The position numbers and the translations under genes are program-made. The notes under the pieces were generated by a model that saw nothing but the letters and a program-made list of their open reading frames with translations, had not been told where the DNA came from and ran no database searches. Shown piece by piece: positions 1 through 60,005 of a stretch of 64,000 bases of DNA. Each line of letters starts with the position of its first letter. Within the stretch, counting starts at the first letter, position 1. Source of the DNA: Abditibacterium sp. (GTDB lineage: Bacteria; Armatimonadota; Abditibacteriia; Abditibacteriales; Abditibacteriaceae); the NCBI GenBank assembly GCA_965199495.1, contig CBDASK010000003.1, positions 1,344,001 through 1,408,000 of the forward strand, read 5' to 3'.

Positions 1-401
1 TACAAACACTTCTTCAAATGCTTGAGCGGATAGGTCGTTTTAAACCACGGATCAAGCATTCCGTGCGGATAAACCAGATAAGGGGTCGAGGTATTGCGTA
101 ACGCTTTCCACGTCGCGTAACCGCCGAATTGCCACAAGCCGCGCACCAATACCATATCGTAGTTGCGGCGATTGGCCCGCAGCCAGTGCGTGAGGCGAGG
201 AGCGTAGGCATAGCCGGTTTTCGCCGGGCCGAACGCGCGAATTTTCAGTGGCGAGTCACGCAGCCACGGCGCGTCGGGCGCATCAAGAGAGGCGATTTCA
301 AAGCGATGCTCGTCTCCCAAAAACCGGTTCATCTGCGTAATGTTTTCGATGGGGCCGCCGCCCGTCGGATCCGTCGAGGTGATGACGTTGAGAATTCTCA
401 A
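1..401 (-). CDS. GT4-family glycosyltransferase (5' part; runs off window edge)
   Basis: Not in the ORF track. Manual translation from TTG at 401 (AGGAGG RBS at 406-411): MRILNVITSTDPTGGGPIENITQM...LVRGLWQF...YPHGMLDPWFK, a typical GT4 N-terminal domain. Confidence 0.85.
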   Translation of the reverse strand, partial: MRILNVITSTDPTGGGPIENITQMNRFLGDEHRFEIASLDAPDAPWLRDSPLKIRAFGPAKTGYAYAPRLTHWLRANRRNYDMVLVRGLWQFGGYATWKALRNTSTPYLVYPHGMLDPWFKTTYPLKHLKKCL

Positions 402-424
402 GCCGCCTCCTAATTTTTCTTGAC

Positions 425-2278
425 TCATGAGGTTTGATGCTTATAAACGGTGCGCGCCCACGCGCCCCACTCACGGTTGAGATCGCGCGCCGAATCGTCA
501 GCGGCTTTTTCGCCGCCGTGCTGGGTCAGCCAGAGCGCGACCGGCACCGAGAACCCGCTTTTGGCGCGATTCACGATGGCATCGGGCAAAGGCCTGCGCG
601 GCGTCGCGGCCAAGTCGGCTTTGGTCAGAGTTTTGTGTGCGCTCAAAGCCACCACTTTGCGCAGCAATTCGATGTCAACGAGCGGCGTGCGCACTTCGAG
701 CGAATGCGCCATGCTCGCCCAATCAGTGTCGCGTAATAACTGGTTCTTCATATACCACGCGGTTTCGAGCGCCGATATTTTCAAATGGGGCGTGCGCAGT
801 CCGCGCGCCGTCGTGTTGAGGCGCGCCATCGTTTGCAGTTCGCGCCAACCCGCGCGCACCATTTCGCCGTCCATGAATTGCGGCAGTTCCCACGGCATGA
901 ACAAGCCACGTCGCAGCAGATAGGCGCCGCCGTAAGTCCCGCCGTATTCTAGTAGGCTTGCATACTTCGGCGATGTGCGTTCGCGCAATAATCGGGCGCC
1001 GACCACGCGAAATCCTTTGCCCAGAACGCCGCCCAGCGGCGCCATTTGAAGGGGACGAGTGGCGCTTACCAAACGCGGGATTTGCGCGAAACTTGGATAA
1101 CCGCCAAAAATTTCGTCGCCGCCCAGTCCAGAAAGCGCGACTTTGGCGCCGATGGACGCTGCCGCCCGACTGACCAAATAGGAGTTCACGCCGTCAATCG
1201 TCGGTTGATCCATCGCGTGAAACAATTTTTCGATCTGGTCGCGGAAATCGGCGCCGCGCACCCGAATCGAATGCTGTCGCATGCCGTAATGGCGCGCGAC
1301 CTCTTCGGCCAAAGGCGTTTCATCGCGGTCGGTTCCGACGTATTCGTCAAAGCCCAGCGTCACCGTCGAGAGCGGTTCCTGCGTGACTTCGCTGGCCAAC
1401 GCCGCCAACGTGGCCGAGTCGCGGCCCGCCGAAAGAAACAGGCTGACTGGCACATCCGAAAGCAAGTGATGCTTCAGACTGTCGCGTAGGGCGTCGCCCA
1501 GTTGCTCCAGATTTTCCGCGTGTGCCCGCGCTTGTCGCGCCGAAGTTTGCGAGCGCGCCGCCTCGCGAGCGAGAGCGTCCGTATGGCGCATTTCGCGCGG
1601 AATATTGCAATAGACACGCGGTGTGCGCGCGCCATTTTCGTCAATCCACAGCGAATGGCCAGCGGGCAAAGCGCGGATGCCGCGATAGAGGGTGTAAGGC
1701 TGCGGCACCGATCCCCACAGAAAAAATCCGACGTGTCCGGCGGGTTCGGGCGCGGTGTCTATTTTGCCACCGGCCAACAACGCTTTGACCTGTGAAGCGA
1801 AACGGATGGCCGAGCCGTTGTCCGCGTAGTAGAGCGGCTTCATGCCGAACGGATCGCAGGCCAAAAGTAGGGCGCGTTTATGGGCATCCCACAAACCAAA
1901 GGCAAACATCCCGCGCAAATCGCCCAACATCGCCTCGCCTTTTTGCGCGTAGAGATGCAGCAAAACTTCGGTATCGCAATCCGAGGTGAATCGGACGCCT
2001 CGCGCTTCTAAGCCGCGCCGCAATTCGGGATAATTGTAGATTTCGCCGTTGAACGTGACAACGAGCGAACCGTCCGCCGAGGCCATCGGTTGCGCGCCAG
2101 CCTCGCTGAGATCAAGAATGGAAAGGCGCCGGTGCGCCAATCCCAGACGCTCGTCCGAGTTCAGATAAATCCCGGCGCCGTCGGGGCCGCGAGAACACAT
2201 ATAATCGCGAACTCGCAGCAACTCTTCTTGTTGCACAGGGCCGTTGTTATAGGAATAGATTCCGGAAATACCGCACAT
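425..2278 (-). CDS. asnB: Asparagine synthase (glutamine-hydrolysing)-like amidotransferase, probably for polysaccharide amidation
   Basis: N-terminal MCGISG (Ntn Cys), RGPDG, HRRLSILDL, FNGEIYN, SGLGGDEIFGGY and SMAHSLEVRTP motifs. Confidence 0.92.
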   Translation of the reverse strand: MCGISGIYSYNNGPVQQEELLRVRDYMCSRGPDGAGIYLNSDERLGLAHRRLSILDLSEAGAQPMASADGSLVVTFNGEIYNYPELRRGLEARGVRFTSDCDTEVLLHLYAQKGEAMLGDLRGMFAFGLWDAHKRALLLACDPFGMKPLYYADNGSAIRFASQVKALLAGGKIDTAPEPAGHVGFFLWGSVPQPYTLYRGIRALPAGHSLWIDENGARTPRVYCNIPREMRHTDALAREAARSQTSARQARAHAENLEQLGDALRDSLKHHLLSDVPVSLFLSAGRDSATLAALASEVTQEPLSTVTLGFDEYVGTDRDETPLAEEVARHYGMRQHSIRVRGADFRDQIEKLFHAMDQPTIDGVNSYLVSRAAASIGAKVALSGLGGDEIFGGYPSFAQIPRLVSATRPLQMAPLGGVLGKGFRVVGARLLRERTSPKYASLLEYGGTYGGAYLLRRGLFMPWELPQFMDGEMVRAGWRELQTMARLNTTARGLRTPHLKISALETAWYMKNQLLRDTDWASMAHSLEVRTPLVDIELLRKVVALSAHKTLTKADLAATPRRPLPDAIVNRAKSGFSVPVALWLTQHGGEKAADDSARDLNREWGAWARTVYKHQTS

Positions 2279-2301
2279 AAGACTGAAGGAAACTGAAGGG
2301 A

Positions 2302-6218: not shown

Positions 6219-7429
6219 AATTCGCGCGCTCCAATCGTATATTCCAGAGCCGCCAACAAGCCTTCTAAGTCTTGCTGAAAACTCCATCCGTTGATAATTC
6301 GCAGACTTTCTTGCCCCATACGCCGGGCGCATTCGGGATCGGAAGTGATTTTTCGCAAATGCTCGCCCAGAAGATGGACATCGCCGACGGGCACGACAAA
6401 ACCGTTCTTTCCCTCTTTCACCAGATCGGGAGCCGAACCTACGCCTTCCGTCACAATCAACGGTTTGCCCGCGTTCATGACTTCGTTCACGACCAATCCC
6501 CAGGGTTCACGCTCCGAGGGTAGCACAAAGACATCGCAGAGATCATAAAACGCGGGCAGTTCGGTTTGATTCTTAAAGCCTAAAAATTTTATGCTCGACC
6601 AACCCAGTTTATCCGCGTTCGCTCCCAGCATATGTCCCTGCTCACCATCGCCAATGAAGAGGAGGTAAGGCAATGGCTCACGTTTTCCATCGGGCGAGAG
6701 GCGCGCGTAAGCCTCAATTAAATCACCGGCTCGTTTACGCGCAATAAATTTGGAGGCGAACAAAATAACCGGACGATCAGGCTCCAACCCCAATTCGGCG
6801 CGCAGAATTTCTCGCCGTGGCTGTGCTGCGGCGACGCGCGCTTGAAAAAAAGCGTTATCTACCGCATAGGGCATTGAAAAAATGCGCTCGTTAGGCACGC
6901 CATAATGGCGATAGTATTCGCGATTGGGCGAACCGATGGACAGAAAACCGTCCGCGCGATTAAAGATATAACGTAATAAAGCTTCTTTTAATTGGACGGT
7001 GCCACGCGCGCGCAACGCGCTATCCATTTGAGATTCAGCGCGCAGTAACACCTTAATTCCCAACATTTTCGCGAGAGCCAGCGCGCGAAGATTGACGTTG
7101 TGAGCGTAACCGTGCATCCAGAGCGCATCGAAGCCACCGCTTTTCAAGCGCCAGCGTAAACCGCGCGACAACGGGCGCAAAGCATTCACCGGATCTGTGC
7201 TACCGTAAGCGGGCAAAAAATCGTGCTGGTAACCTTCGGTCAATGGTACGTCCCACGTTACGGTTCCACCAAAACCCTCGTCTTGATAACTTCTCATGGA
7301 AAAATCAGACAAAAAGAACGTCTTGAGTTCAATTTCTGGTTGCGACGAAACGAAACGCAGCAGTGGCGCTTGATATTGAATAGGATGCGAAACCAAATAG
7401 GCAACGCGGTAAGGACGAGTTAATTTCAA
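6215..7429 (-). CDS. GT4 glycosyltransferase
   Basis: SHPIQYQAPL N-terminus and VLPSEREPWGLVVNEVM. Confidence 0.9.
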   Translation of the reverse strand: MKLTRPYRVAYLVSHPIQYQAPLLRFVSSQPEIELKTFFLSDFSMRSYQDEGFGGTVTWDVPLTEGYQHDFLPAYGSTDPVNALRPLSRGLRWRLKSGGFDALWMHGYAHNVNLRALALAKMLGIKVLLRAESQMDSALRARGTVQLKEALLRYIFNRADGFLSIGSPNREYYRHYGVPNERIFSMPYAVDNAFFQARVAAAQPRREILRAELGLEPDRPVILFASKFIARKRAGDLIEAYARLSPDGKREPLPYLLFIGDGEQGHMLGANADKLGWSSIKFLGFKNQTELPAFYDLCDVFVLPSEREPWGLVVNEVMNAGKPLIVTEGVGSAPDLVKEGKNGFVVPVGDVHLLGEHLRKITSDPECARRMGQESLRIINGWSFQQDLEGLLAALEYTIGAREL

Positions 7430-7708
7430 GAGATCATTTCCTTTTGCACTATATCGTGGAGCGTGATCAGATTATTAATTTTCAATTCATCTGATAATAT
7501 TTTTATATTTGCGAAGGGCAAAATATAATTGTATTTCTTCAAATTAATTTCACAAAAACAACTTCTAATTAATTTAATTTTCATTTTTCCACCAAGCGAT
7601 TAGAATTTACGTAATTGCTCCTGTCATAGTAGTTCAACTCGGTATTGATTACGAGTGCACAGACAAACTACACGAAAAATAGTAAATTCGCGCTCAAATG
7701 CGTAGCCT

Positions 7709-8329
7709 TTAGCGAGGTTCATCTTCAATCATTTCACGGCCTTCTTTGCCGATCCACGCGTCTTGAAAAGCCAAGAATCGCACCGGACTGTAACGCAATT
7801 TGTGAATACGCTTTTCTTTTTTAATTATAGCGGGATTACCGATGGCCAACGCATAATCGGGCACGTCTCGGCTCACTACGGTAGCCGCACCGACAACTGC
7901 GCCTCGCCCAATTTTCACTCCTGGCAAAATAGTCGAACCCGTCGCAATCCAAGCGTAATCGCCGATGTGAACTTCGCCCAATTTGTGACGCCATAAAGGA
8001 TCTCGTAAATCGTGACTTGCCGTAAGTATCGTCACACCATCATTGATGCAAACAAAGGAGCCAATCGACAATTTATCGTGCAACATAATCGTCGCTCGTC
8101 CGATAAAAGAAGCATTGCCTACGATCAAATTGCTCATCTGACCTTGAATATCCGTTTCGCCAATACAAGCGTCAACGGCGATGTTCGCGCCGCTCCGGAT
8201 AAGGCGATGGCGCCGAGATGCGACTCGCAACAATCCCGGTAAAGTCAGAATACGCTTAGCCCAAGCTTTGAAAAACTCCTGCGAGCCGACGGGCGGGCGG
8301 CTGCGGTGGCTCCACAAATAAGAGAACAT
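7709..8329 (-). CDS. Hexapeptide-repeat (LbH) acyltransferase
   Basis: IGDYAWIATGSTILPGVKIGRGAVVGAATVV...GNPA. Confidence 0.9.
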   Translation of the reverse strand: MFSYLWSHRSRPPVGSQEFFKAWAKRILTLPGLLRVASRRHRLIRSGANIAVDACIGETDIQGQMSNLIVGNASFIGRATIMLHDKLSIGSFVCINDGVTILTASHDLRDPLWRHKLGEVHIGDYAWIATGSTILPGVKIGRGAVVGAATVVSRDVPDYALAIGNPAIIKKEKRIHKLRYSPVRFLAFQDAWIGKEGREMIEDEPR

Positions 8330-8335
8330 AGCGAA

Positions 8336-9520
8336 TTAGTGACTGAGGCTTTGCGCCTTCAATTGCCGCACAAATCTGGCAGCGACAACGGGCAAACTTT
8401 CTTGAGGAGCGCGCTTTTGCAGGTTCAGCGAAGTGGAAGGCGATGCACCATCAAAGCGTTGTAAACGCGGGTCGTTCGGAGGAGGCACGGCTTCCTTACC
8501 ACGCCAGTGCCAATCATGACGATTAACGATGACGGGCAGACCGTGATCCAGTATAGTTGCCGTGGAACTGCTCTTTTCGATCAACTGCCAGGGAGAAGCA
8601 GAAATCCCAAAATCAGCTTTTTGGAGCAAGCGCGAGACATGATCTGCGGATTGCTTGCCCCAAAATACGAAAGTTATATCAGCAGCATATTTACGCTTCA
8701 TCTCTTCCCAAATTGCTTCACCAGCGCTTCCCAATCGTCCGATAGCCATTAAGCGCAACCGTCTTTGCCGTTGTGTGGCCATTTCTATCAAGACGCTTAA
8801 TAAAGGTTCTGCTTCCCACTGGTTATAAAGTGCGCCGAAGAACACACCTGTCCATAGGGGAAACGATTGCTGAGATGAAGCAATAGACGCAGTCTTTTCC
8901 AGCCAAAACGTCTCGAATTGTCTCTGCGCCTCAGGGTCGTCGTTTGATGCGATTGGGATGTTAGCAAACAATGGTAAGTGAGCGGCCTGAAATCCATCGC
9001 GGGTGAGAATCGCCATGTAAACGCCATTGGACGTGGCTATCGCGGCGGGCCGCAACTGACGAGTCATTTGCAGAACATAATGCCGTTGCAGTTTGCCCAC
9101 CGCTCTCTCTTTCAGATTGGCTTCGATGGTCTCCCCGATCCACAATTCATGGAACATGATGTGGAGACGACGTTCTTCGACGAGCTGTCGCAGATTGGCC
9201 GCCAAGCCGCTCACAACGCCTTTGGGATGAAACGCGTAGGGCACGAATTGCAAACTGACCCAATCGGGAGCGAACTCGTCCAAAAAATTGCGAGCGAGTT
9301 CGATGCGTTCATGCCAAGATAAGCTATCGGGCAATCTCAATTGTGAAATTCCATCGTCATTGCGTTGCGGTGTGGTAACATGAGGATCGCTCAACGCCAC
9401 GATCTGGCATTTGACATGGGGTTGCTGGCGCTCGATTTCCCGAGCCAATAAACAGCTGTAATCGCCAACTCCATTGGCGCCCGGTTCCAAGCCACCAACT
9501 AAAAACGTGATCTTCGTCAT
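8336..9520 (-). CDS. Divergent GT-B glycosyltransferase
   Basis: GVGDYS, LQFVPYAF, MFHELW and KSSSTATILDHGLPV motifs. Confidence 0.75.
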   Translation of the reverse strand: MTKITFLVGGLEPGANGVGDYSCLLAREIERQQPHVKCQIVALSDPHVTTPQRNDDGISQLRLPDSLSWHERIELARNFLDEFAPDWVSLQFVPYAFHPKGVVSGLAANLRQLVEERRLHIMFHELWIGETIEANLKERAVGKLQRHYVLQMTRQLRPAAIATSNGVYMAILTRDGFQAAHLPLFANIPIASNDDPEAQRQFETFWLEKTASIASSQQSFPLWTGVFFGALYNQWEAEPLLSVLIEMATQRQRRLRLMAIGRLGSAGEAIWEEMKRKYAADITFVFWGKQSADHVSRLLQKADFGISASPWQLIEKSSSTATILDHGLPVIVNRHDWHWRGKEAVPPPNDPRLQRFDGASPSTSLNLQKRAPQESLPVVAARFVRQLKAQSLSH

Positions 9521-9583
9521 GATATTTTGAGAGTTCTCATCAGTGTTAAAAGCAGTCACATCAAATTAACAATAAATTTGAGG

Positions 9584-10486
9584 CTATATAGTTTGTCCAT
9601 TGGTTCTAAATGGCGCGGCAGATTTAATGCGCTCCTGAACTTTTCCCACATCTTTTATATATATTGTGTTGCCTGACTTCATATTTTTGCCATTGAGAGG
9701 CTTCAACTTCCGACGAAAAGGCGAATAGGTGAAGGTTTTAAAGCCATAACTCATCATCTTTTTATGAAGCGCAGCTTCGTCAAATCCATAGCGATTGCCG
9801 CTTCCATTTAATTCCATGATGACCGCGAGCAATGATTCTTGAGATAAAGTAGCCTCCGCGCCTTTAATGACATTGGTTTCAAAACCTTCAACATCAATTT
9901 TGATAATGGTGGGATGCTGTTCTGCGATAAGGCTATCCAATGTTTTTATGGGAACAGAAATGGAATCCAAATCTTCTTCATCTGTAGATATGACGTGATT
10001 AACGGTGTCTAATCCTGCGGTGAATTTAAGTTCGCCATTTTCGTGACCGACACCAATATTTTTAGCATCTACGTGTCCATAAATACCGTTTAAATCTATG
10101 TTTTTCACCAGGTTGTAATAAGTCGTTGGTATTGGTTCAAAAGATACACATTTTGCTCCAATGACAGCACCCGCTAAAACAGTGTAGGATCCCACATTGG
10201 CACCAACGTCCACGAATACATCTTCTTTTCGCAAAGCGTGGAGCACAAAACCCATATCCTCAAATTCATGCAATCCCGTATAGACGTTTTGGGTGGCTCC
10301 TGTCATACCTGGACTTACGAGTAATTGGGAGTCATTCACGAAACTAACGGCCACGGCCCCAGGCGCTAACCTGCTGCCGATTTGCCAGGCAACAAAGCGT
10401 TTGATAGATGCTAATTTTCGCTTTCTGTTCAAAGGATGATTAGTAATAAATCGCAGCAAATGGAGGATATTGAGTATTTGGTTCAT
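9584..10486 (-). CDS. FkbM-family methyltransferase
   Basis: FVDVGANVG and IKIDVEGFE. Confidence 0.9.
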   Translation of the reverse strand: MNQILNILHLLRFITNHPLNRKRKLASIKRFVAWQIGSRLAPGAVAVSFVNDSQLLVSPGMTGATQNVYTGLHEFEDMGFVLHALRKEDVFVDVGANVGSYTVLAGAVIGAKCVSFEPIPTTYYNLVKNIDLNGIYGHVDAKNIGVGHENGELKFTAGLDTVNHVISTDEEDLDSISVPIKTLDSLIAEQHPTIIKIDVEGFETNVIKGAEATLSQESLLAVIMELNGSGNRYGFDEAALHKKMMSYGFKTFTYSPFRRKLKPLNGKNMKSGNTIYIKDVGKVQERIKSAAPFRTNGQTI

Positions 10487-10727
10487 ATTTTTTTCACAAA
10501 GAAATATTGCTCTTGCAACTTATCTTACATGAAGCTTTAGTTTCGGCGCAATCCCCAAGGAAGAGTTGCTCAGGATCCTGCTCCAAAAACCGGAGAGTGG
10601 ATCAAATGAAGAAAATGTTACAAAAAAGTGGCAATTGCTCGGCAAACATAAACACATTTCAATAATATCGGTAAAGGAGTAAATAAAATGCTTGCTCCAA
10701 TGAGGCGAGAGGCAAGTGATACAAATA

Positions 10728-10876
10728 AATAGCCCGTGCAAAAATCTGAGTGTGTTTACGAATGCAGAGGAATTGAGTGTGAATTAAATCCAACTCACGC
10801 GCGCTAAGTTAGATTTAATCCAGAAAGCAAGTTTCCGACGCATATGCGCCACGTTCAGATTTTTGCACGGACTATT
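10728..10876. mobile_element. MITE-like element with 22-bp terminal inverted repeats
   Basis: AATAGCCCGTGCAAAAATCTGA (10728-10749) vs TCAGATTTTTGCACGGACTATT (10855-10876), 1 mismatch. Internal hairpin ATTAAATCCAACT...AGTTAGATTTAAT. Confidence 0.6.
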
Positions 10877-10915
10877 GATGAATCAGAGCTTCTCTTAGCG
10901 TTCAAAGAACAGAAA

Positions 10916-11719
10916 TTACGCCGGGCGAATGAAACTCACGGCCATGCCGGTATGCAGTTTACGGCGTAAAGGTAGAGGTAGAGTGCGCGAAGAGCGTTCG
11001 ATCAGTTGAACCAAACGTGAAGGCATAAATTTCAGCAGCATTCCCATTTTGAGATGACCATTTGTTAAGGGGTTGGTGTAGAGCTGAACGTTTTTTATCT
11101 GAAGACCCGCTTTGTCGGCTAAGACTTCTAATTCGTCGGTGTGCAATAGAAAAATGTGACCGTCCGAATTGGGTTTGAATTGTATGCTCTCGAATTGAGA
11201 AGGGTCAGCACACTGAGAGAATTTAGGCAATTTGTTAAGAAGGTAACCACCGTTTGGCGTAGTCATTACGATGTGTCCTCCTGGTTTGACAAGTGCAGCG
11301 ACCGAAGCAAGAAATTCGTCGGGGTGCGCGACATGCTCGATGATTTCAGTAATTAGAACTGCATCGAATTTTTCATCGAAATCCAACTCGAACGCGTTTC
11401 CAGGCGCGTAATGAACGATGCCTTTTTCATGCTTGAGCTTGACATAATCCATCAACTCGGTGCGCAAATCGTTCCATGTCACTTCGTAGCCCATCTCGGA
11501 TAGAGACAGAGTGAAGTTGCCTTGCGCAGCCGCAACATCAAGGATTTTAGCGCCTGGAACACACACTTGCTTTATGAGTTCAAGTGTGTGCTGACGCCGA
11601 TCATCATAAGCATAAGCGTAACCTTTGACTGTTTGAGTACCGAAAACTTCAAGCAAATCATACTCGTAACTGCTGGACCAGCTTTCGGGCCATTGTGCAT
11701 TGGGAATGGGTTGTTTCAT
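10916..11719 (-). CDS. Class I SAM-dependent methyltransferase
   Basis: KILDVAAAQG, FDAVLITEIIEHV and VKPGGHIVMTTPN. Confidence 0.88.
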   Translation of the reverse strand: MKQPIPNAQWPESWSSSYEYDLLEVFGTQTVKGYAYAYDDRRQHTLELIKQVCVPGAKILDVAAAQGNFTLSLSEMGYEVTWNDLRTELMDYVKLKHEKGIVHYAPGNAFELDFDEKFDAVLITEIIEHVAHPDEFLASVAALVKPGGHIVMTTPNGGYLLNKLPKFSQCADPSQFESIQFKPNSDGHIFLLHTDELEVLADKAGLQIKNVQLYTNPLTNGHLKMGMLLKFMPSRLVQLIERSSRTLPLPLRRKLHTGMAVSFIRPA

Positions 11720-11754
11720 GATGTATGGGAAAGAGCAAAAAATTAGCGCAACAG

Positions 11755-13140: not shown

Positions 13141-13167
13141 CGGAGAAGAACACATATACAATGTTCG

Positions 13168-15320: not shown

Positions 15321-15462
15321 TCTTTCTTATCCTTTTCTGACAGAGGTCTTCCTGCAGTTTGTTCGTAGTAGCGTCTGCAAGAAGACCTTTACTCCTTTTC
15401 TGTTGAAGAGCACTTTCTAAATATTATCACTATAAAAAGTGCATGGTATTATCACACTACTA

Positions 15463-16050: not shown

Positions 16051-16106
16051 AAAAATAGGAGTCGTTAATTTATTGTAATGTATTTTTGCCTTCTTTCCTT
16101 ATTATC

Positions 16107-16286: not shown

Positions 16287-16299
16287 TCTATTTAGAAAA

Positions 16300-16908: not shown

Positions 16909-17029
16909 AAATTTTTCTCACTCGTAAATTATCAGATTTATTGACTACAAATCAACTGTGTCGGATTTGGAGTAAGCCCAGCGCATGAATTTTAAATATA
17001 GTGTTCTGACTCATTTGATTTGCTGAATT

Positions 17030-42780: not shown

Positions 42781-42837
42781 GCTGGGCGACCAGATCGTAT
42801 TATGACCCGTCACAGCGCACCAGCCACGCCGCCCTTC

Positions 42838-48483: not shown

Positions 48484-49719
48484 TTACTTGAACCACTTTT
48501 TCAACAAGCCGCCTTGCCCGTTGTTCGATTCGTTGAAAACAATTGGCTCGCGGCCCAGCAGTTCGAGCGCCAGATTGTTGATGCGTCTGGCAATCGTGGT
48601 GCTTTCGTTGTGCAAAACGAAAGGTTTGCCTTCGTTGATCGAAGTTACCACGATTTTGCCGTCGGACGGAATGCGCGCGCGCATTTGCACGCCTAAAACG
48701 TTTTCCACATCTTCCAGCGAAATGCCGACATCCGAATTGGCGCGATTGAGCACGACCTGAATTTTTTCGGCCTCGTAAAGTTGGCGCAACATCTCCAACG
48801 CGGTGCGCGTTTTGTGCAGCGCCAGCAAGTCGAGCGAAGTCAAAAGCAGAATCGTTTTGGCGCTGTCCAACACGGCCAACGTGGTGTCTTGCAACTGCGA
48901 GGGCGTGTCCACGATGATATAATCGTAGCTTTCGCGCAACGTTTCCATGACTTGCTCAACCGTGTAAACAGTAATGGATTCGGCGTATTGCGGCGTCGAG
49001 GGCGCGACCAAAATTTTGAGGCCGCTTTCGGGGTGGAGCGTGAGATATTGCTCCAGAAGTTCGCCATCAATGCCGCCGTGGCCCTTCTGCGCCAGACCGG
49101 CGATGGTATTTTTGGGCGCCAGATTCAGCATCAAATCAATGTCGCCGAATTGCAAATTGAGGTCAACTAACACCACGCGCGGCATTTGGCCGTCTTCGCC
49201 CGTCGCGCGCGCCATAGCCACGGCGAGGTTGGCCGACAGCATGGATTTGCCCGCGCCGCCTTGGGGCGAGTAAACCGCGATGATTTCGCCCAGCGCGCGC
49301 TTGGCGTCGAGATTGGGCTGGGCGCTGACTTTGGCTTCGCGCTGTTTGGTGTTGGTCTGGTGAACGCTGCGAATCGTCGAAATCAGATCGTCGGGCGCGA
49401 CCGGGCGCATGATGCAATCGCGCGCGCCCGCCCGCATCAGGCGCCGCATCAGTTCCATGTCAGCGCCTTCGATTAAAACGATGACCGCCGTATCGGGAGA
49501 AGCGGTCGTGATTTGATCTATGACATGCGTCGAATCGGCGCTCAAAATGGCGCTGTCGAGCAAAACGACTTCGGGAGATAATTGGCGCGCTAAATCAACG
49601 GTTTGGCGGCCATCGGAGGCCTCGCCCACAATTTCCAGACCCCGGTCGCGCTCCAGTTGGAGCGCCAACCCTTGGCGCGATGTTGGTTTAGCGTCGGCGA
49701 GGATAATAGAAATAGCCAT
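48484..49719 (-). CDS. CpaE/TadZ-like receiver plus MinD-type ATPase
   Basis: Atypical REC domain, SPQGGAGKS, VDLNLQFGD and IVDTP. Confidence 0.85.
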   Translation of the reverse strand: MAISIILADAKPTSRQGLALQLERDRGLEIVGEASDGRQTVDLARQLSPEVVLLDSAILSADSTHVIDQITTASPDTAVIVLIEGADMELMRRLMRAGARDCIMRPVAPDDLISTIRSVHQTNTKQREAKVSAQPNLDAKRALGEIIAVYSPQGGAGKSMLSANLAVAMARATGEDGQMPRVVLVDLNLQFGDIDLMLNLAPKNTIAGLAQKGHGGIDGELLEQYLTLHPESGLKILVAPSTPQYAESITVYTVEQVMETLRESYDYIIVDTPSQLQDTTLAVLDSAKTILLLTSLDLLALHKTRTALEMLRQLYEAEKIQVVLNRANSDVGISLEDVENVLGVQMRARIPSDGKIVVTSINEGKPFVLHNESTTIARRINNLALELLGREPIVFNESNNGQGGLLKKWFK

Positions 49720-49993: not shown

Positions 49994-51322
49994 TTATTTG
50001 TCGCCGACCAAATCTTTGGTTTTGTGATCGCGGCGCCCGACCAGAACGCGCGCGCCCCGGTCGTGGCCGACGAAGTTCCAAAACCAGCTTCCAATCGCGG
50101 CCAGACGGTTGCGCCAACCGGCCAGAAACATGACGTGAACGGCCAGCCACATCAGCCAACCGGGAAATTTGGTGATGCCGGTTCCCATGCGGATTTTGGC
50201 GGGTTTGTCCGCCGCCACAATCGCCGCGCCGCGCCCGATAATCGCCATCGAACCTTTGTCGTAATACGAAAACTTCGACGGCACGCCGCCACTGGCCAGC
50301 GTCAAAACGTTGGTCGAAGCCTGCGCCGCCATCTGAATCGCCACCTGCGCGACCTGCGGATAAGCCATCACGCGGTCGCCCCATTTGTAACCTTCGAGAT
50401 AGGCCATATCGCCGACCACGAAAACTTCGGGATGATCGGGCAAATTCAATTCTTCGTTGACCGGCACGCGAAAACCGCGCTGCAATTCCAGACCGAGATG
50501 GTCGCTGAGCAAAGCGCCGCGCACGCCCGCCGCCCAGATGACCGTGCCCGCCGCCAGCGTCTTGCCGTCTTTGAACTCGACGACGTTGTTTTCGACGCTA
50601 CCGACCGCCGAGTTGAGCATGATTTCGACGCCGCGCTTTTCCAACTCTTTCGCCGTGGCTTTCACCAGGTCGGGCGTGTTGCTAAAGGGCAACATGATGT
50701 TGCCCATCGCCTCGATAAGACAAACGCGCGCGTCTTTCATGTTGAGGCTGGGATAATCTTTCTGGAAGTTATCCTTGATCAACTCGCGAAAACCGCCCGC
50801 CAACTCGACGCCGGTCGGGCCGCCGCCGACGATGGCGATGGTCATCAACTGTTTGCGCTTTTCCGGGTCGGTTTCGGTCTGCGCCTTCTCGAAGCACTCC
50901 AAAACGTGATTGCGAATCTCTTCGGCCTGATCCACATCTTTCATCGAAAACGTCGTTTCGGCCAGACGGTCGTTGCCAAAGTAAAACTGTGCGCTGCCCG
51001 CCGCCAGAATCAGATAATCGTAATCAATTGGCTTGCCGTTGGCGATGTTGACCTGTTTTTGCGCCCAGTTCACGCCGGTCACGTCGGCCAATTGAAAATC
51101 AATGTTCTTGTAGGGATGAATGACTTTGCGAATCGGATAGGCGATGAGTTCCGAGTTGAGCGCGCCCGTCGCGACTTGATAAAGCAGCGGCCAGAAACCG
51201 TGATAGTTGTTGCGATCAACGACCAAAACGTCAATCGCCTTGTTGCCGAGCGTGCGAATCGCCGATATTCCGCCAAATCCGGCGCCCACAATGACCACTC
51301 TGGGTCGTCCATTTTTTGCCAT
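49994..51322 (-). CDS. ndh: Type II NADH dehydrogenase
   Basis: VVIVGAGFGG, PLLYQVATG, IVGGGPTGVELAG and DKGSMAIIGR. AGGAG RBS. Confidence 0.93.
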   Translation of the reverse strand: MAKNGRPRVVIVGAGFGGISAIRTLGNKAIDVLVVDRNNYHGFWPLLYQVATGALNSELIAYPIRKVIHPYKNIDFQLADVTGVNWAQKQVNIANGKPIDYDYLILAAGSAQFYFGNDRLAETTFSMKDVDQAEEIRNHVLECFEKAQTETDPEKRKQLMTIAIVGGGPTGVELAGGFRELIKDNFQKDYPSLNMKDARVCLIEAMGNIMLPFSNTPDLVKATAKELEKRGVEIMLNSAVGSVENNVVEFKDGKTLAAGTVIWAAGVRGALLSDHLGLELQRGFRVPVNEELNLPDHPEVFVVGDMAYLEGYKWGDRVMAYPQVAQVAIQMAAQASTNVLTLASGGVPSKFSYYDKGSMAIIGRGAAIVAADKPAKIRMGTGITKFPGWLMWLAVHVMFLAGWRNRLAAIGSWFWNFVGHDRGARVLVGRRDHKTKDLVGDK

Positions 51323-51689: not shown

Positions 51690-54600
51690 ATGATACTTTC
51701 TGGCGGCTCGAAGAATTGGCGGTGGCTGGGCGTGGCGCTGGCGCTTTTGCTGATCGTTAACGCTTTCATTTCCTATCGCAGCGTGCGGCATGTGGTCGAA
51801 AGCAACGCCAAAGTCGCCCTAACTTACCAAGTTTCGTCCGAACTTCAGCGCGTTTTTTCGGCGATGCAGAACGCCGAAACCGGGCAGCGCGGCTATATTA
51901 TTACCGGTCAGGACAACTATCTGGAGCCGTATCGCGACGCCATCAGAAACCTCGCGCCTCATCAAAAGCGGTTGCGCGAATTGGCCGTTGACCCGCAGGT
52001 CGCGGCGCAGTTGCCGGTTTTGGACGAGCAAATCGCGCAACGTTTGAAGCGTTTGGAAGAGACCATCGCAGTGCGGCGCGCGAGCGGTTTCGATGCGGCG
52101 CGCGCGCGCATTTTGACGGGTGAGGGCAAAGCGAAGATGGATCAGATTCGCTCCACGATTGATACAATCGAAGCGCGCGAGCAAGTTTTATTAGAGCAGC
52201 GCCAGCAACAGGCCGCCGAGAGCGTGCGCGACGGTCAAATTACCTTTGGCGTGGCGCTCTTGTGCAATTTGCTGTTTTTGCTGGGACTTTACGCGATTAT
52301 TCAGCGCAACACGGCGCGGCGCGAACTGGCGGCGCAGCAACTGCGCGCAAGCGGCGAACGTTTTCGCGCCATTGTCGCGGCCTCGTCCAACATCGTGTGG
52401 ACGACCGACGCGAGCGGAAAATTTGTCGAAGAACAGCCATCGTGGATGGCGTTTACCGGACAGACGCCCGAAGAAACCCAGCGCGAAAGTTGGTCGGCGG
52501 TTCATCCCGATGACCGCGCATTCGCGGAGCAAAAGTGGGAAGAAGCGCGGCGCGGCGCCAAAATCTATAACGTCGAATATCGCACGCGCCGCGCTGACGG
52601 CCAATGGCGCCTGATGGCAGTCAGAGCCACGCCGATGCTCAACGAAAATGGCACGGTCACCGAATGGGTCGGCACCAGCACCGACATCACAGATATTAAA
52701 CGCACCGAGCGCGCGCTTTTGCAACGCGATCAGCAGATGCAGTTGGTGTTGTCCAACGCGCCGATGATTCTGTTTACCGTGGATCGCGACGGCATTTTCC
52801 TGCTCAGTCGCGGCAAAGCGCTCGAAGCGCTGGGATTTGGGCAGGACGAAGTCGTCGGGCGCTCGCTCTTCGAGGTTTACGCCGGTTTTCCCGATGTCGT
52901 CGCCGATGTGAAAGACGCGCTCGAAGGCCGCGTTTCCAGCAAAGTCGCGACGTATGAATTGGGGCCGGTCACGCTCGAAGGCCGTCTGTCGGCGCTGCTC
53001 GATGAGAGCGGCGAAATCGTCGGTGCCATCGGCATGACGACCGATGTCACGCAGCGTTACCGCGCCGAAGAAGAGCGCGCGCGCTTGAGCCGCTACAATC
53101 AACTGCTGCTCGATTCGACGGGCGAAGGCATTTTCGGCGTGGATTTGGAGGGCCATTGCACTTTCGTCAATGCCGCTGGCGCCGCCATGACCGGCGTCAC
53201 GCCCGACGAAGTGCAATCGCAGATTCTGGGGCGCGATGTGCATCAATTGCTGTTGCCCAAACGCGGCGACGGCAGCGATTATTCCGCCGCGCAAGGCCCC
53301 ATCGCGCGCTGTTTCGCGAGCGGCCACAGCGTCCATAACGAAGAGGCAATTTTGTGGCGCCGCGACGGAACTTCGTTCGATGCGCACCTCGACGTTTATC
53401 CCTTACGAGACGGCGAAAATAGCGATGGCATTCTCAGTGGTGGCGTGTTGACCTTCGAGGATGTCACCGAGAAAAAGCGCGCCGAGGCCGATTTGCGCCA
53501 CAGCCAGCAGCAGTTCAAAAATCTGGCGAACTCGATTCCGCAACTCTCGTGGACGGCGCATCCCGATGGGAAAATCTACTGGTATAACCAGCGTTGGTAT
53601 GATTTCACCGGCACCGATTTCGAGGGGATGCAAACGCCGCGCGGCGACATCGTTCACCCCGAATACGGCGAGGCGATGACCGCGAGTTGGCAAGAAGCCT
53701 TGAGAAATCAGACTTCGTGGGAATATACCTTTCCGTTGCGACGCCACGACGGCGAGTATCGCTGGTTTTTGTCGCGCGCCGAGCCGGAGCGCGACGAACG
53801 GGGCGAAGTCGTACGCTGGTTTGGTACCAACACCGACGTGACCGACGAACGAGAAATCGCCGCCAGTTTGCAGGCGAGCGAAGCCCGCAAAGCCGCGATT
53901 CTGGAAACGGCTTTAGATTGTATCGTCGCCATTGACGAGCAAAGCCACATCACCGAGTGGAACCCGGCGGCGGAAAAAACTTTCGGCTACGCGCGCGCCG
54001 AAGTTCTGGGCCAATCGTTGCCCGAACTGATTATTCCGCCCGCGCTGCGCGAAGCGCATTTTGGCGGCATGGAGCGTTATCTTGCGACCGGCGAAGCGGT
54101 GGTTTTGGGGCAACGCATCGAAGTTCCGGCGCTGCACCGCGACGGACGCGAATTTCCCGTGGAACTTTCGGTCGCGCGCATTGAGGGCGCCGGGCCGCCG
54201 CTTTTCACGGCGTATCTGCGCGATATTTCCGAACGCAAAGGGGCCGAAGCCGAACTGGCGGCGAGCGCGCGTTTGGCGGTTTTGCGCGCGCAAATTGGGT
54301 TATCGCTCAACCGCTCCGACGATCTGGAAGAAATGCTGACCGCGTGCGCGCAGGCGATTGTGGATCACCTCGACGCCAGTTTCGCGCGCATCTGGACGCT
54401 CAACGAAATAGAAAACGTGCTGCATCTGCGCGCGACCGCCGGTTCTTACACGCGCTCGAACCGGCCCGACGATCTGGTTCCGGTGGGCCAGTTCAAAGTT
54501 GGCATTATCGCGCAGGAGCGACGGCCCTATCTCACCAATCAGGTCGTGGGCAACCCGCGCGTGGCCGATCAAGAATGGGCGATACGCGAGGGCATGATCG

Positions 54601-56357
54601 CGTTCGCCGGTTATCCGTTGCTGGTGGAAAATCGTCTGGTCGGCGTGTTGGGAATGTTCGCCAAACACGAACTTTCTGATACCGTTTTGACTTCGCTTTC
54701 GACCGTGGCCGATGCCATCGCGCTGGGCATCGAGCGCAAGCGTTCGCAGGCCGAAATGGAACGCGCCAAGCTCGATGCCGAAGAAGCCTCGCGCACCAAA
54801 AGCCTGTTTCTGGCCAACATGAGCCACGAACTGCGCACGCCGCTCAACGCGATTTTGGGCTACTCGGAAATGTTGGAAGAAGAAGCGCAGGATTTGGAAC
54901 TGGACAATTTCACTTCCGATTTGAGCCGCATTAATTCGGCGGGCAAACATCTTTTGGCGCTGATTAACGATATTCTGGATTTGTCGAAAATCGAGGCGGG
55001 CAAAATGGACTTGTTCGTCGAAGAGTTCGATCTGGCCATGACAATTCACGAAGTTTCGTCGCTGGCAGAGACGCTGATGGAGAAAAATGGCAACGCGCTC
55101 CGCATCGAAATGCCCGACGATTTGGGAACGATGACCGCCGACCAGACCAAGGTGCGCCAGTGTTTGCTCAATTTGCTTTCTAACGCCGCCAAATTCACCA
55201 AAGACGGCGACGTGACGTTGCGCGTTAAACGCGAAACCATTGCGGCGCTCGATGAAGCCACGTCGCGCGACTGGCTGGCTTTCGAGGTGCAGGATTCGGG
55301 CATCGGCATGAGCGAGGAACAGGTTCTGCGCCTGTTTCAGGCGTTCACGCAGGCCGACGCTTCGACGACGCGCAAGTTTGGCGGGACGGGTCTGGGTCTG
55401 GCGCTGACTCGCCGTTTTTGTCAGATGATGGGCGGCGACGTGAACGTGCAATCGGTGCCCGGCGCGGGCAGCACCTTCACCTTTCATCTGCCCGCCGTCG
55501 TCAGCGCCGACGTGGCTGGGAATGGCGGCGAACCGTTTCTCTCGTCCGACGCGGTTATGCGACCAGTCATCGAAACGCTGGCGCCCGGCGCGCAGCGCAT
55601 CAGCGTTCTGGTGATTGACGACGACCCGACGCAGCGCGATTTGATGCAACGCTTTCTGGAAAAAGAGGGCTTTTCGGTGCAAACCGCCAGCAGCGGCGAA
55701 CAGGGTTTGGCCCTCGCGCGCCAGATCAAACCTTTGGTGATTACGCTCGACGTGATGATGCCCGGCATGGATGGTTGGCGCGTGTTAGACGCGCTCAAAA
55801 ACGACGCCGAACTGGGCAAAATCCCGGTGATTTTGCTGACGATGGTGGATGACAAATCGCGCGGCTACGCGCTGGGTGCCGCCGATTACATGACTAAACC
55901 GGTGGATCGCTCGCGGCTGTCGAATGTGTTGCAAAGGTTCATTTGCGCCAATCCGCCGTGTTCGGTTTTGCTGGTCGAAGACGACGAACCCACGCGCGCC
56001 ATGATGCGCCAGATGCTCGAAAAACAGGGCTGGCTCGCCGTCGAAGCCGCCAACGGCGTCGAGGGTTTGGCGAGATTGGCAGAAAACCGGCCCGCATTAA
56101 TTCTGCTCGATTTGATGATGCCCGAAATGGACGGCTTCGAGTTCGCCGAAATCGTTCACCATCACCCGGAGTGGCACAACATTCCCATCGTCGTGCTGAC
56201 GGCCAGAGATTTGTCATCCACAGAGCGCGAAATGTTGGGCCAGCACGTCCATCAAATCCTGCAAAAATCGGGGCAATCGCGCGAAGCACTGCTAAAGCAA
56301 GTGCGCGGATTGGTCGCGAATTACACGACGATTTCACCCGGCACCTGCGAAACGTAA
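51690..56357 (+). CDS. Hybrid sensor kinase CHASE3-PASx5-GAF-HisKA/HATPase-REC-REC
   Basis: AETGQRGY (CHASE3), five PAS/PAC repeats, GAF (AFAGYPL), FLANMSHELRTPLN, GGTGLGL and two receivers. Confidence 0.93.
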   Translation: MILSGGSKNWRWLGVALALLLIVNAFISYRSVRHVVESNAKVALTYQVSSELQRVFSAMQNAETGQRGYIITGQDNYLEPYRDAIRNLAPHQKRLRELAVDPQVAAQLPVLDEQIAQRLKRLEETIAVRRASGFDAARARILTGEGKAKMDQIRSTIDTIEAREQVLLEQRQQQAAESVRDGQITFGVALLCNLLFLLGLYAIIQRNTARRELAAQQLRASGERFRAIVAASSNIVWTTDASGKFVEEQPSWMAFTGQTPEETQRESWSAVHPDDRAFAEQKWEEARRGAKIYNVEYRTRRADGQWRLMAVRATPMLNENGTVTEWVGTSTDITDIKRTERALLQRDQQMQLVLSNAPMILFTVDRDGIFLLSRGKALEALGFGQDEVVGRSLFEVYAGFPDVVADVKDALEGRVSSKVATYELGPVTLEGRLSALLDESGEIVGAIGMTTDVTQRYRAEEERARLSRYNQLLLDSTGEGIFGVDLEGHCTFVNAAGAAMTGVTPDEVQSQILGRDVHQLLLPKRGDGSDYSAAQGPIARCFASGHSVHNEEAILWRRDGTSFDAHLDVYPLRDGENSDGILSGGVLTFEDVTEKKRAEADLRHSQQQFKNLANSIPQLSWTAHPDGKIYWYNQRWYDFTGTDFEGMQTPRGDIVHPEYGEAMTASWQEALRNQTSWEYTFPLRRHDGEYRWFLSRAEPERDERGEVVRWFGTNTDVTDEREIAASLQASEARKAAILETALDCIVAIDEQSHITEWNPAAEKTFGYARAEVLGQSLPELIIPPALREAHFGGMERYLATGEAVVLGQRIEVPALHRDGREFPVELSVARIEGAGPPLFTAYLRDISERKGAEAELAASARLAVLRAQIGLSLNRSDDLEEMLTACAQAIVDHLDASFARIWTLNEIENVLHLRATAGSYTRSNRPDDLVPVGQFKVGIIAQERRPYLTNQVVGNPRVADQEWAIREGMIAFAGYPLLVENRLVGVLGMFAKHELSDTVLTSLSTVADAIALGIERKRSQAEMERAKLDAEEASRTKSLFLANMSHELRTPLNAILGYSEMLEEEAQDLELDNFTSDLSRINSAGKHLLALINDILDLSKIEAGKMDLFVEEFDLAMTIHEVSSLAETLMEKNGNALRIEMPDDLGTMTADQTKVRQCLLNLLSNAAKFTKDGDVTLRVKRETIAALDEATSRDWLAFEVQDSGIGMSEEQVLRLFQAFTQADASTTRKFGGTGLGLALTRRFCQMMGGDVNVQSVPGAGSTFTFHLPAVVSADVAGNGGEPFLSSDAVMRPVIETLAPGAQRISVLVIDDDPTQRDLMQRFLEKEGFSVQTASSGEQGLALARQIKPLVITLDVMMPGMDGWRVLDALKNDAELGKIPVILLTMVDDKSRGYALGAADYMTKPVDRSRLSNVLQRFICANPPCSVLLVEDDEPTRAMMRQMLEKQGWLAVEAANGVEGLARLAENRPALILLDLMMPEMDGFEFAEIVHHHPEWHNIPIVVLTARDLSSTEREMLGQHVHQILQKSGQSREALLKQVRGLVANYTTISPGTCET

Positions 56358-56451: not shown

Positions 56452-56853
56452 ATGCCCTTAATTTTGCTCGTCGAAGATAACGAAATGAATCGCGATATGC
56501 TGTCGCGCCGCTTGATTCGCAAAGGTTATGAAGTCGAATTCGCGATTGATGGCGAACAGGGCGTGGAAGTCGCGATGGAAAAGCAGCCCGACCTAATTTT
56601 AATGGACATGAGTCTGCCGGTTCTCGACGGCTGGGAAGCCACCAAAAAGCTCAAGGCACAAGCAGCCACGGCGGCCATCCCGATTATCGCGCTGACCGCC
56701 CACGCCATGAGCGAAGACCGCGAACGCGCGTTGGACGCGGGTTGCGACGATTACGATACCAAACCCGTTGAACTGGCGCGCTTAATCGAGAAAATCGAGG
56801 CGTTGTTGGCCAATAAAACAAGCGAAGATGATGACATCAAAGAGTTAGACTAA
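56452..56853 (+). CDS. Single-domain response regulator (DivK/CheY-like)
   Basis: ILLVEDNE, LILMDMSLP, ALTA and TKP. Confidence 0.93.
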   Translation: MPLILLVEDNEMNRDMLSRRLIRKGYEVEFAIDGEQGVEVAMEKQPDLILMDMSLPVLDGWEATKKLKAQAATAAIPIIALTAHAMSEDRERALDAGCDDYDTKPVELARLIEKIEALLANKTSEDDDIKELD

Positions 56854-58313: not shown

Positions 58314-58363
58314 ATTGCAGTATGGGCGCAAAATTATGAGTGAGAATGCACCTTATAGACCGT

Positions 58364-58510: not shown

Positions 58511-58585
58511 GCGCGTGTTTATGTGGCGTTGAATAGCGTTGTAAAACACTTCAAAATGGTGAGGCTAAACAATAGAGAGCGACAT

Positions 58586-59281
58586 CTACAACTCGTAACT
58601 GCAAACCGCCACAACGCTGGCTTTTTTGCTGGCGACGACTTTTCCATCCACTACAATTTCGACGATAATCGGCGTATTGGCGGGCAGTTGGCTTTGCGCC
58701 AGACGCGCGCTCAACTGAATTTGCGCATCGTCGGCCAAAGTCGCGTCAATATACCACGGCGCGATGGTCAGCATATTTTCGCCCGGCGGATTGGCTCCGC
58801 TCATCGCGTAGCCGACTTGCAACATTTCGGGCGGGCCGCTCACGCGCAGTTGCACCTTGTAGGTGCGCGGCGCGGGCACGATGCGCACGCCGTTGAAATA
58901 CAAAGGTTTGTCGGGCGCCTCGATCCAATCGGTGCTGTAACGCTTGTCCGACGCCACCAGTTGGCCGATTTTCAGCAGCGTGCTTTGCTCGCCATCGCGC
59001 ACGATTCCATCCGCCGAAACCAGAGTTAATTCGGTCACGCGCCCGTTGGAAGGCTTGAAGGTCGCCGTCAAAGTCGCGCCGTTTTTCGTCCAAATTTTTT
59101 GATTGGGCGTCGCCGTGGCTGCATTGGTCGCTGGCCCCAACCTTTGCGTGACCTGATCAATGGGCAAACCGATGAGCGCGGGCACATCGAACGGCGGCGG
59201 AACGGGCGCTTTGTGGCAACCGCTCAACGTCGCCAGCGACAAAGCGAAAAGGCAACAGAAAAAAACGCGAAATAGGGTCAT
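58586..59281 (-). CDS. Hypothetical lipoprotein
   Basis: MTLFRVFF...LATLSG-C lipobox. Confidence 0.72.
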   Translation of the reverse strand: MTLFRVFFCCLFALSLATLSGCHKAPVPPPFDVPALIGLPIDQVTQRLGPATNAATATPNQKIWTKNGATLTATFKPSNGRVTELTLVSADGIVRDGEQSTLLKIGQLVASDKRYSTDWIEAPDKPLYFNGVRIVPAPRTYKVQLRVSGPPEMLQVGYAMSGANPPGENMLTIAPWYIDATLADDAQIQLSARLAQSQLPANTPIIVEIVVDGKVVASKKASVVAVCSYEL

Positions 59282-59303
59282 GGCTGGCGGGAGATAAAAT
59301 TTT

Positions 59304-60005
59304 TCAAGAACGCGCGCGCGGCGGTCTTTTGTTGGTCGAGTGAGCCTCGTCAAGGGGATCGAAGGCCGCCCCGGTGCGCGCGGCATTGGACGCGACGCTA
59401 ACGCGAGTTTCGTCTTCGGCGACGCGTCCGTCAATCACGGGTTCTTCGTGGATGACGCCCGACGATTTCTTTAAAATCGTGATGTCGCGCACATCGCGAT
59501 TGCTGAGGACGTGCATGCAATCGGCTTCGTCGCGCAACCAGATGGCGCGCAGCGAAATCTTCTCGATGGTGCCGACGTGGCCGTTAATCGTGACGGCATC
59601 GCCGGGCGCAATCGAATCTTCGGCCAGCAAAAAATAGCCCTGCGCATAATCGCGCAAAACCGGCATCAGCCCGGCGCCAATCATAAACGCGACCGCGCCA
59701 AACGCCAGAGCCAACGGCAAAAGCGGAACGCCGAAAACGCCCAAAACCAAAATGCCCGCGACCGTATAAATCATGAATCGCGCGACGAATTTGGGCACGC
59801 GGCGCAGCGTAGCACGCCGCTCATTGCGCCATTTGGCCTCGCGATGTTGGTCGAGTTTGCTGAAACTATCGGTCAGCGCGGCCAGTCGGCGCCCGGCATA
59901 CCAAGCGATGAACTCGAAAGCCACGGCGATGAGCAAAACGCGCACGCCGATGAAAAGAAGCGTCCCAAAATTGGGAATCAAATCGCGCAGGGTGACAATG
60001 TTCAT
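59304..60005 (-). CDS. Small-conductance mechanosensitive channel (MscS family, short)
   Basis: TM helices, RDYAQGYFLLAEDSIAPGD and GTIEKISLR. Confidence 0.85.
   Translation of the reverse strand: MNIVTLRDLIPNFGTLLFIGVRVLLIAVAFEFIAWYAGRRLAALTDSFSKLDQHREAKWRNERRATLRRVPKFVARFMIYTVAGILVLGVFGVPLLPLALAFGAVAFMIGAGLMPVLRDYAQGYFLLAEDSIAPGDAVTINGHVGTIEKISLRAIWLRDEADCMHVLSNRDVRDITILKKSSGVIHEEPVIDGRVAEDETRVSVASNAARTGAAFDPLDEAHSTNKRPPRARS

Follow-up and report, generated by a model that had tools for sequence, protein, structure and literature searches.

Why does one ten-letter word recur some twenty times in a stretch of bacterial DNA in which chance would hardly place it once? The window studied here, meaning the whole stretch of 64 kb, is part of contig C3 (4.72 Mb) of an Abditibacterium-like genome, G000. 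For one protein encoded in it, the closest matches were Abditibacterium/Abditibacteriaceae entries, at 80-81%. It holds 20 copies of CGCCGTGGCT, ten on each strand, against an expectation of 0.25 and a largest count of 2 in 100 dinucleotide shuffles. The original prediction had listed these copies and proposed either a self-DNA tag resembling the DNA uptake sequence (DUS) of Neisseria or a site for a nucleoid protein. All its positions and strands proved exact, as did the extension to CGCCGTGGCTGC in 12 of the 20 copies, the five single-mismatch copies, the readings P-W-L (262) and Q-P-R-R (6813), and the intergenic copy (31851). We observed that selection or drive maintains the word, in register within genes and missing from foreign DNA, and that its copies are evenly spaced on each strand and keep a constant rotational setting relative to curved DNA. 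Judged by its sequence properties, the word may well be a lineage-specific self-DNA tag, used in uptake or recombination in the manner of DUS or of the uptake signal sequence (USS), and we consider this question evenly poised.

A dispersed word under selection

CGCCGTGGCT is the commonest 10-mer of the G000 genome, with 693 copies on the plus strand and 681 on the minus strand against Markov expectations of 80 (order 4) and 218 (order 5); models above order 5 absorb the word. A table of single mismatches in G000 showed that position 3 is degenerate in the order C>G>A>>T (C 1374, G 863, A 562, T 114) and that the GCT tail is softer than the 10-mer, and the full word is therefore CGVCGTGGCT(GCT). 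Thus the copies first described stand, and the fixed third base does not, since C, G and A are all common there. The chromosome carries 2,799 copies of CGVCGTGGCT, of which 31 lie in the window. The start GCCGT, which had been likened to that of the Neisseria DUS, is incidental: only (C)GTGGCT is invariant, and the genome has just 7 copies of the Neisseria 10-mer.

Genes on C3 were called with our own Markov caller followed by gap filling, giving 3,849 open reading frames (ORFs) and 86.6% coding sequence, uncurated. Within these predicted genes, which contain 2,589 of the 2,799 copies, the 10-mer was found 1,277 times, compared to 40-50 times in five synonymous-codon shuffles (about 27-fold, and in all six frames) and 275-310 times in three runs of a dicodon-plus-next-residue model that was itself trained on motif-bearing genes. 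Coding copies sit mostly in two frames (xVA and ATx), and the encoded tripeptides exceed their reversed controls for ATP (867/407) and DVA (823/387), but not for QPR (184/183); a tripeptide excess is likewise described for uptake sequences in a passage of an earlier paper (PMC2817400). Plus and minus counts over skew-defined segments were 531/531, 643/659 and 218/217, indicating no replichore polarity, and the word forms no cluster at ori or ter (a motif scan places dnaA near 2.03 Mb on C3), so that it behaves neither as a polarised Chi nor as an FtsK-orienting (KOPS), matS or parS site. Since the enrichment survives protein-preserving shuffles and shows no replichore polarity, the DNA-level constraint proposed originally is established as a selected, lineage-specific DNA signal.

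The word is spread evenly along the chromosome (variance/mean 0.5-0.6 at 10 kb), and no gene is notably rich or poor in it (the lowest p among about 3,850 ORFs being 0.007). It is scarce in DNA of foreign character: the two small G000 contigs, for which 14.6 and 38.3 copies would be expected, have 0 and 2, the largest word-free gaps of C3 are mostly low-GC islands, and its density is 0.22 per kb in atypical ORFs versus 0.6-0.7 in typical ones.

The signal is also conserved. Across 37 genes with 91% amino-acid identity to the sister genome G006, the sites were identical in 26 of 33 orthologous cases and gapped in none. Silent positions were included in this conservation: third-position identity reached 0.94 within sites, against an overall 0.76 and 0.71 in the tripeptide-matched controls. 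A third genome, G012, has 10 of 66 G000 sites in common, and motif-less members of the genus 1 of 159.

Strand-specific spacing and helical phase

Copies in the same orientation avoid one another. Such pairs were observed at 0.05-0.34 of expectation at distances of 10-600 bp and at 0.60 at 600-800 bp, and were normal beyond 1.5 kb, while pairs in opposite orientation stayed at about the expected number, with an excess solely below 25 bp. At 40-600 bp there were 121 same-orientation pairs against 292±12 in 200 label permutations. Among single sites at 40-400 bp the counts were 55 against 255 expected for the same orientation and 284 against 276 for the opposite one, and three control 7-mers showed nothing resembling this avoidance. 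It holds within genes and across oppositely oriented genes. Perfect sites are still avoided by most variants with a mismatch at positions 1-3, but not by most of those with one at 6-10. Since the avoidance is equally strong between non-identical variants (observed/expected 0.19-0.37), and 60 other frequent 10-mers show the reverse trend, their direct pairs outnumbering expectation (1885/1115), loss by deletion between direct repeats is an unlikely cause. Close pairs are almost all inverted (71 of 74 within 45 bp); in total, 140 of 2,766 copies lie in pairs less than 40 bp apart, including 14 intergenic hairpin pairs. Spacing in G006 and G012 agreed with that in G000, in small samples. Distances between neighbouring sites were also examined for helical phasing; only the -+ pairs gave a signal (p=0.004 at 11 bp, among 54 tests), and it is not relied on.

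The sites are further locked to a helical pattern in their flanks. A/T content around them oscillates by about 5 points, with peaks near -17, -28, -39, -50, -61, +30, +40, +51 and +62, and the phase is the same at sense-coded (956), antisense-coded (665) and intergenic (196) sites; tripeptide-matched controls are flat (amplitude ≤0.008). The period is 11.1 bp on the 5' side and 11.0 bp on the 3' side, and the phase slips by some 2-3 bp from one side to the other. The oscillation is stronger on the 5' side and fades out over 150-200 bp; its amplitude is greatest at third codon positions (0.094 vs about 0.05). An 11.1-bp periodicity of AA/TT runs throughout the G000 genome, also far from sites; the word is therefore locked to a general signal and is not its source. 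Such A/T periodicity is usually read as reflecting DNA bending, a reading contested in a passage of one paper (PMC7537859). CGTGGCT has the top phase-lock z-score among all 7-mers, the larger amplitudes belonging mostly to repeat families. Mismatches at positions 5-10 abolish the phase lock and those at 1-4 halve it, and as the same positions abolish spacing and phasing, the functional core can be deduced from the sequence by itself. The phase lock was replicated in G006. Orthologous G012 positions without the word keep the phasing (0.067, n=51; motif-less relatives 0.022±0.010), and the single sites of G012 itself are not phased (0.012).

These two properties, avoidance of the same orientation up to about 1 kb and a phase lock to an 11-bp A/T oscillation over ±150 bp, are new. 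We infer a maintaining force that works on the two strands independently, reaches saturation within about 1 kb, senses one face of the duplex in bent geometry and is blind to the direction of transcription and replication.

Relatives, candidate readers and the window

The 12-mer is abundant in three of the 31 genomes of the class (690, 510 and 154 copies; ≤13 in the remainder), and the 11-mer in the same three, G000, G006 and G012, among 251 genomes of the phylum. They form one clade with a support of 100 in a quick rpoB tree of 30 of the 31 genomes, G002 being left out. G012 carries its own dialect, GGACGTGGCTGGTGT (1,288 copies), with 46 of 93 copies in inverted pairs and REP-like (repetitive extragenic palindromic) hairpins containing GTAG; at 2 of 8 orthologous coding sites compared, the longer G012 word stands in register where G000 has its own, with altered amino acids. 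In G015 the word is AGTACGGTCGA, at about 1 per kb, and 34 of the 59 copies counted form hairpins bordered by A/T runs. Two other genera include six genomes (G016-G019, G025 and G026) that carry hyper-abundant words, (T)CGAGTACTCG(A) and GCAAGTACTTGC, which share an AGTACT core, recur at about 1 per kb in genes and spacers, avoid themselves at short range, and are palindromes like the highly iterated palindrome 1 (HIP1), as the G000 word is not. RAGTACTY has 2,695-4,371 copies per genome in these six and 0-396 in the other 25. De novo searches of 60-220 kb samples from each of nine motif-less genomes returned no such word; samples of 11-20 kb were searched in six further genomes, and G002, G007, G008, G022, G027 and G029 were tested with fixed patterns only. 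Apparent words in G028 (a tandem repeat) and G004 (not dispersed in per-kb counts) were dropped. The DUS of Neisseriaceae is reportedly also clade-restricted, with dialects.

Of the competence and pilus genes that the original prediction had thought worth a search, comEC, comEA and a type IV pilus operon (pilB-pilT-pilC-pilD-minor pilin, with four minor pilins) are present and intact in G000, as are dprA, recA, mutL and HU. Some 40 related prepilin-type genes (about 250 aa) are scattered over C3, and in the motif-less G003 comEA is cut to a 62-aa frame and comEC is truncated N-terminally. A fast-diverging minor pilin of 608 aa, with a predicted fold of confidence (pLDDT) 88.9, had no match in the PDB at E<=0.001, and no search was aimed at the ComP family itself.

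Several candidate readers were rejected. A 1,421-aa PD-(D/E)XK nuclease joined to a superfamily 1 helicase (C3:4111365-4115630) occurs in four genomes (G000, G012, G015 and G021) and in broken form in G006, but the word that it predicts in G021 is absent from 220 kb of that genome. The break (G006:C5, L535 16232-18512) has replaced the nuclease half by a 265-aa frame and left the remainder frameshifted; the start of the new frame presumably resembles a CD-NTase. An orphan N4/N6 methylase (C3:1807692) has close homologues across most of the family, in genomes with or without the word, and was not found in G012. An origin from REP-associated transposases (RAYT) is unsupported in G000, where no copy of the word flanks any of the 20 Y1-transposase loci examined; C3 also holds several Y1-transposase genes and at least two unrelated REP-like families of about 120-160 copies each, one starting GTAGAGAC. 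The extra length of GyrB is an intein (G000:C3:4092616-4096092) and not a recognition domain, and a motif scan found a single pair of type IIA topoisomerase genes in G000.

An AddAB-like pair is present in all ten motif-less members of the genus and in none of G000, G006 and G012. No PD-(D/E)XK protein of AddAB size was found in any of the ten word-bearing genomes, and G000 has a single UvrD-family helicase. The distribution of HIP1 between marine and freshwater cyanobacteria is generally inverse to that of recBCD. According to part of one study, recBCD is present in marine picocyanobacteria and several freshwater model strains are without it (PMC5101192).

Within the window, CGCCGTGGCT lies on the minus strand at 262..271 (A-P-W-L, in a predicted gene) and on the plus strand at 6813..6822, antisense in a GT4 glycosyltransferase gene (Q-P-R-R), with a position-3 variant at 904..913 (-). 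A block of 44% GC then follows (7000..17500), containing glycosyl- and methyltransferase (polysaccharide) genes adjoining an ABC exporter; it holds 0 copies against 28 in 17.5-64 kb and was probably acquired recently. Beyond it, copies read as A-V-A occur at 17783..17792 (-, F-A-V-A), 20366..20375 (-, G-A-V-A), 28082..28091 (+, R-A-V-A), 36094..36103 (+, T-A-V-A), 41910..41919 (+, G-A-V-A), 49216..49225 (-, L-A-V-A) and 59919..59928 (-, I-A-V-A), and twice in an acetolactate synthase gene (34003..34012, +, A-A-V-A; 34408..34417, +, D-A-V-A). Those read as A-T-A are at 25687..25696 (-), 40699..40708 (-), 45486..45495 (+), 56664..56673 (-) and 59111..59120 (+), all A-A-T-A, and at 50651..50660 (+, K-A-T-A). 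The intergenic copy, CGCCGTGGCT(GCT), is at 31851..31860 (-), and an inverted pair (38988 +, 39006 -) occupies 38988..39015 inside a DtxR-family regulator gene. Position-3 variants lie on the minus strand at 30030..30039, 30974..30983, 42822..42831, 52625..52634 and 55256..55265, and on the plus strand at 31598..31607, 35562..35571, 43534..43543, 55508..55517 and 62230..62239.

Elsewhere on C3, a CRISPR array of 131 repeats (2766480-2775200) has two spacers that match the chromosome, exactly at C3:593119 and partly at C3:4220148, in or near motif-poor regions. Restriction-type words are strongly avoided on this contig: fourteen 6-mers, mostly palindromes and including CGGCCG, CTCGAG, CCCGGG, CCGCGG, GAGCTC and TTCGAA, stand at 1-8% of Markov expectation, and the shorter CTAG, GTAC and GGACC at 4%, 11% and 3%.

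Competing readings and known systems

Accumulation driven by uptake is the best fit to the overall pattern, and both signatures can be seen faintly in known tags; we judge it a reading that could fall either way. A protein of the type IV pilus/ComEA/ComEC pathway would recognise the word from one side of a bendable duplex, DNA bearing it would be taken up or recombined preferentially, and alleles that create the word would spread. The gain would be strand-specific and would level off within one recombined tract, some 0.6-1 kb long, so that a further copy in that strand would bring little, while one in the opposite strand would still help. The palindromes found in related genera would represent further dialects, serving both strands at once.

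Control loci for DUS and USS were taken around terminator pairs, 2 of 80 and 4 of 79 being dropped as other taxa and then short or overlapping ones, which left 46 and 51 for spacing. In the pooled USS loci, with inverted pairs removed, same-orientation pairs at 40-400 bp numbered 36 against 65 expected and opposite pairs 56 against 61. The 5' phasing of single sites was 0.021 for USS (null 0.005), 0.018 for DUS (0.004), 0.057 for G000 (0.003) and 0.040 for the G026 palindrome (0.013). The word looks like an uptake tag in every sequence test but that of inverted pairs and intergenic enrichment, where the outcome was mixed, and it is a candidate member of the DUS/USS group.

Several results weigh against uptake. 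The control pools mix related genomes, are non-independent and have no peptide-matched control, so that they are suggestive only. Pooled DUS singles show just a slight same-orientation deficit at 40-400 bp (53/61; opposite 73/58), and once inverted pairs are included, same- and opposite-orientation pairs both fall short of expectation (USS 0.44 and 0.60, DUS 0.73 and 0.79). Phasing in G000 is about three times that of USS and DUS and longer-ranged, and its 11.0-11.1 bp is the genome-wide period, which would suit supercoiled DNA inside the cell. Binding in either orientation by an outer-membrane receptor predicts spacing blind to orientation, though opposite pairs are undepleted (284/276), and two USS within 100 bp give no added uptake in H. 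influenzae, according to a passage of one report (PMC7811141). The word is sparser between genes (0.31/kb) than in them (0.63/kb). Competence genes are equally common in motif-less relatives (comEC 30/31, dprA 29/31), and no receptor or reader was found among the nuclease-helicase, orphan methylase, RAYT transposases, GyrB and minor pilin. Of the tag-or-nucleoid-site proposal made originally, the selected DNA-level signal has held and the role in uptake is still a proposal; the nucleoid-protein alternative is strengthened by the 11-bp phase lock. An uptake reading needs a strand-specific step that is missing from standard models.

One alternative is an intracellular signal for repair or recombination, with Chi-like logic and a new reader in a clade without AddAB or RecBCD; we think this unlikely, but it is the best explanation of the spacing. 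A nickase, resection enzyme or RecA loader would recognise the word on one strand. Each strand would need copies within about 1 kb of a break or gap, and the orientations would therefore be spaced independently and without replichore bias. Exclusion of the same orientation with independence of the opposite one is what two strand channels predict, and its persistence across gene boundaries and between variants points the same way, as does the distribution of AddAB and of proteins of its size. The loss of AddAB within the genus is, however, a single event, four genomes (G014, G021, G023 and G024) have neither AddAB nor any word, and the best candidate enzyme failed in G021. A helicase on single-stranded DNA gives no reason for rotational phasing, and known Chi sites are polarised, as stated in part of one paper (PMC8022716). 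The phasing is best explained by an anchor for a wrapping protein, and it is similarly doubtful that this accounts for the word as a whole. Here a nucleoid protein or topoisomerase would sit on one face of supercoiled DNA, wrapping or bending the flanks as gyrase does, and polar complexes would exclude each other over about 1 kb. The oscillation, its slip across the site, its decay over ±150-200 bp, its recurrence in G006 and its constancy at sense, antisense and intergenic sites fit such an anchor; passages elsewhere describe an E. coli gyrase motif with periodic arms (PMC6379681) and propose a structural role for HIP1 (PMC5861425). But the gyrase motif is symmetric and degenerate with a 10.75-bp period, while the word is invariant and asymmetric; the G000 gyrase has no extra recognition domain, supercoil handling is expected to be orientation-blind, USS and DUS are phased too, and G012 singles are not.

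It is improbable that the word is HIP1-like and tied to a DNA methyltransferase, through a methylation-directed repair ratchet or methylation-dependent transformation. The HIP-like palindromes of relatives recommend this explanation, HIP1 is itself methylase-linked and aids transformation in the account given in part of one paper (PMC13756078), and methylation of one strand of an asymmetric site would give strand-specific coverage. Among the N4/N6 and C5 families, however, one enzyme is common to all three clade genomes and has a putative restriction gene as its neighbour, the orphan enzyme occurs across the family but was not found in G012, and 10-13 bp is long for a methylase site. A neutral by-product, whether of codon or peptide bias, REP-type remnants or deletion of close direct repeats, is more improbable still and is largely refuted. 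The two dominant frames and the hairpins that hold about half of the G012 copies would suit it, but protein-preserving shuffles remove the word, silent positions are conserved without gaps, exclusion extends to non-identical variants, and none of the Y1-transposase loci examined has the word at its borders.

Returning to the uptake tag, we know of no sequence-specific uptake tags established outside two proteobacterial families. If the reading is true, Abditibacteriaceae (Armatimonadota) would possess a tag with its own dialects, implying an independent origin and rapid turnover. No publication was found that contains these words as whole words, in a search lying outside subscription journals and supplements, and no paper found links Abditibacteriota or Armatimonadota to uptake sequences in the portions of text available. 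We give a small but real chance to an undescribed class, comprising chromosome-wide signals read strand-specifically on bent duplex inside the cell, in lineages without RecBCD or AddAB, with a reader that, in a single family, would alternate between asymmetric words and palindromes; the faint signatures of USS would then betray an unrecognised strand-specific step in known uptake sequences. Both signatures would also predict a strand-specific step for USS, and spacing per strand and the 11-bp phase lock offer concrete tests, applicable to any genome, for the debate over DUS, HIP1 and Chi.

Among known systems, REP elements and their mosaics (BIME) are remote from the word, given its location in genes and the transposase loci without it. 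The E. coli gyrase motif shares periodic A/T arms either side of its centre, but the word differs in its invariant asymmetric core, 11.0-bp period, longer decay and orientation-specific exclusion. Chi resembles it in orientation-dependent logic, core-genome enrichment and a G-rich GTGG core; the word is longer and denser, without replichore polarity, in a genome without RecBCD or AddAB. HIP1 (GCGATCGC) is likewise hyper-abundant, selected and found in genes and spacers, its function being debated between transformation and chromosome structure, and palindromes of its kind occur in six genomes of the family to which G000 belongs. The G000 word is, however, non-palindromic, no linked methylase was found for it in the N4/N6 and C5 families surveyed, and its periodicity is 11 bp, against 10-90 kb for HIP1 in a passage of PMC5861425. 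DUS is similar to the words of this clade as a dispersed 10-12-mer with dialects among relatives and conserved orthologous sites, and to those of G012 and G015 in that about half of the copies lie in inverted pairs (507 of about 1,028 in pooled DUS). It differs from the G000 word in its core, in showing little orientation-specific spacing and in not being sparser between genes than within, as far as the relevant text of PMC2397512 goes. USS is like the word in being non-palindromic, with thousands of copies at about 1 per 1-2 kb, on both strands and inside genes, in its absence from acquired DNA, in its even spacing and helically phased A/T flanks and, weakly in the pooled loci, in same-orientation exclusion and 5' phasing; part of one paper describes its phased T-tracts under a kinking model (PMC3458573). 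The G000 word is unlike USS in its unrelated sequence, other phylum, degenerate third base and few terminator pairs; its flanks form a broad ±150-bp oscillation in place of two discrete tracts, and its exclusion is much stronger (0.22) than that of USS (0.55).

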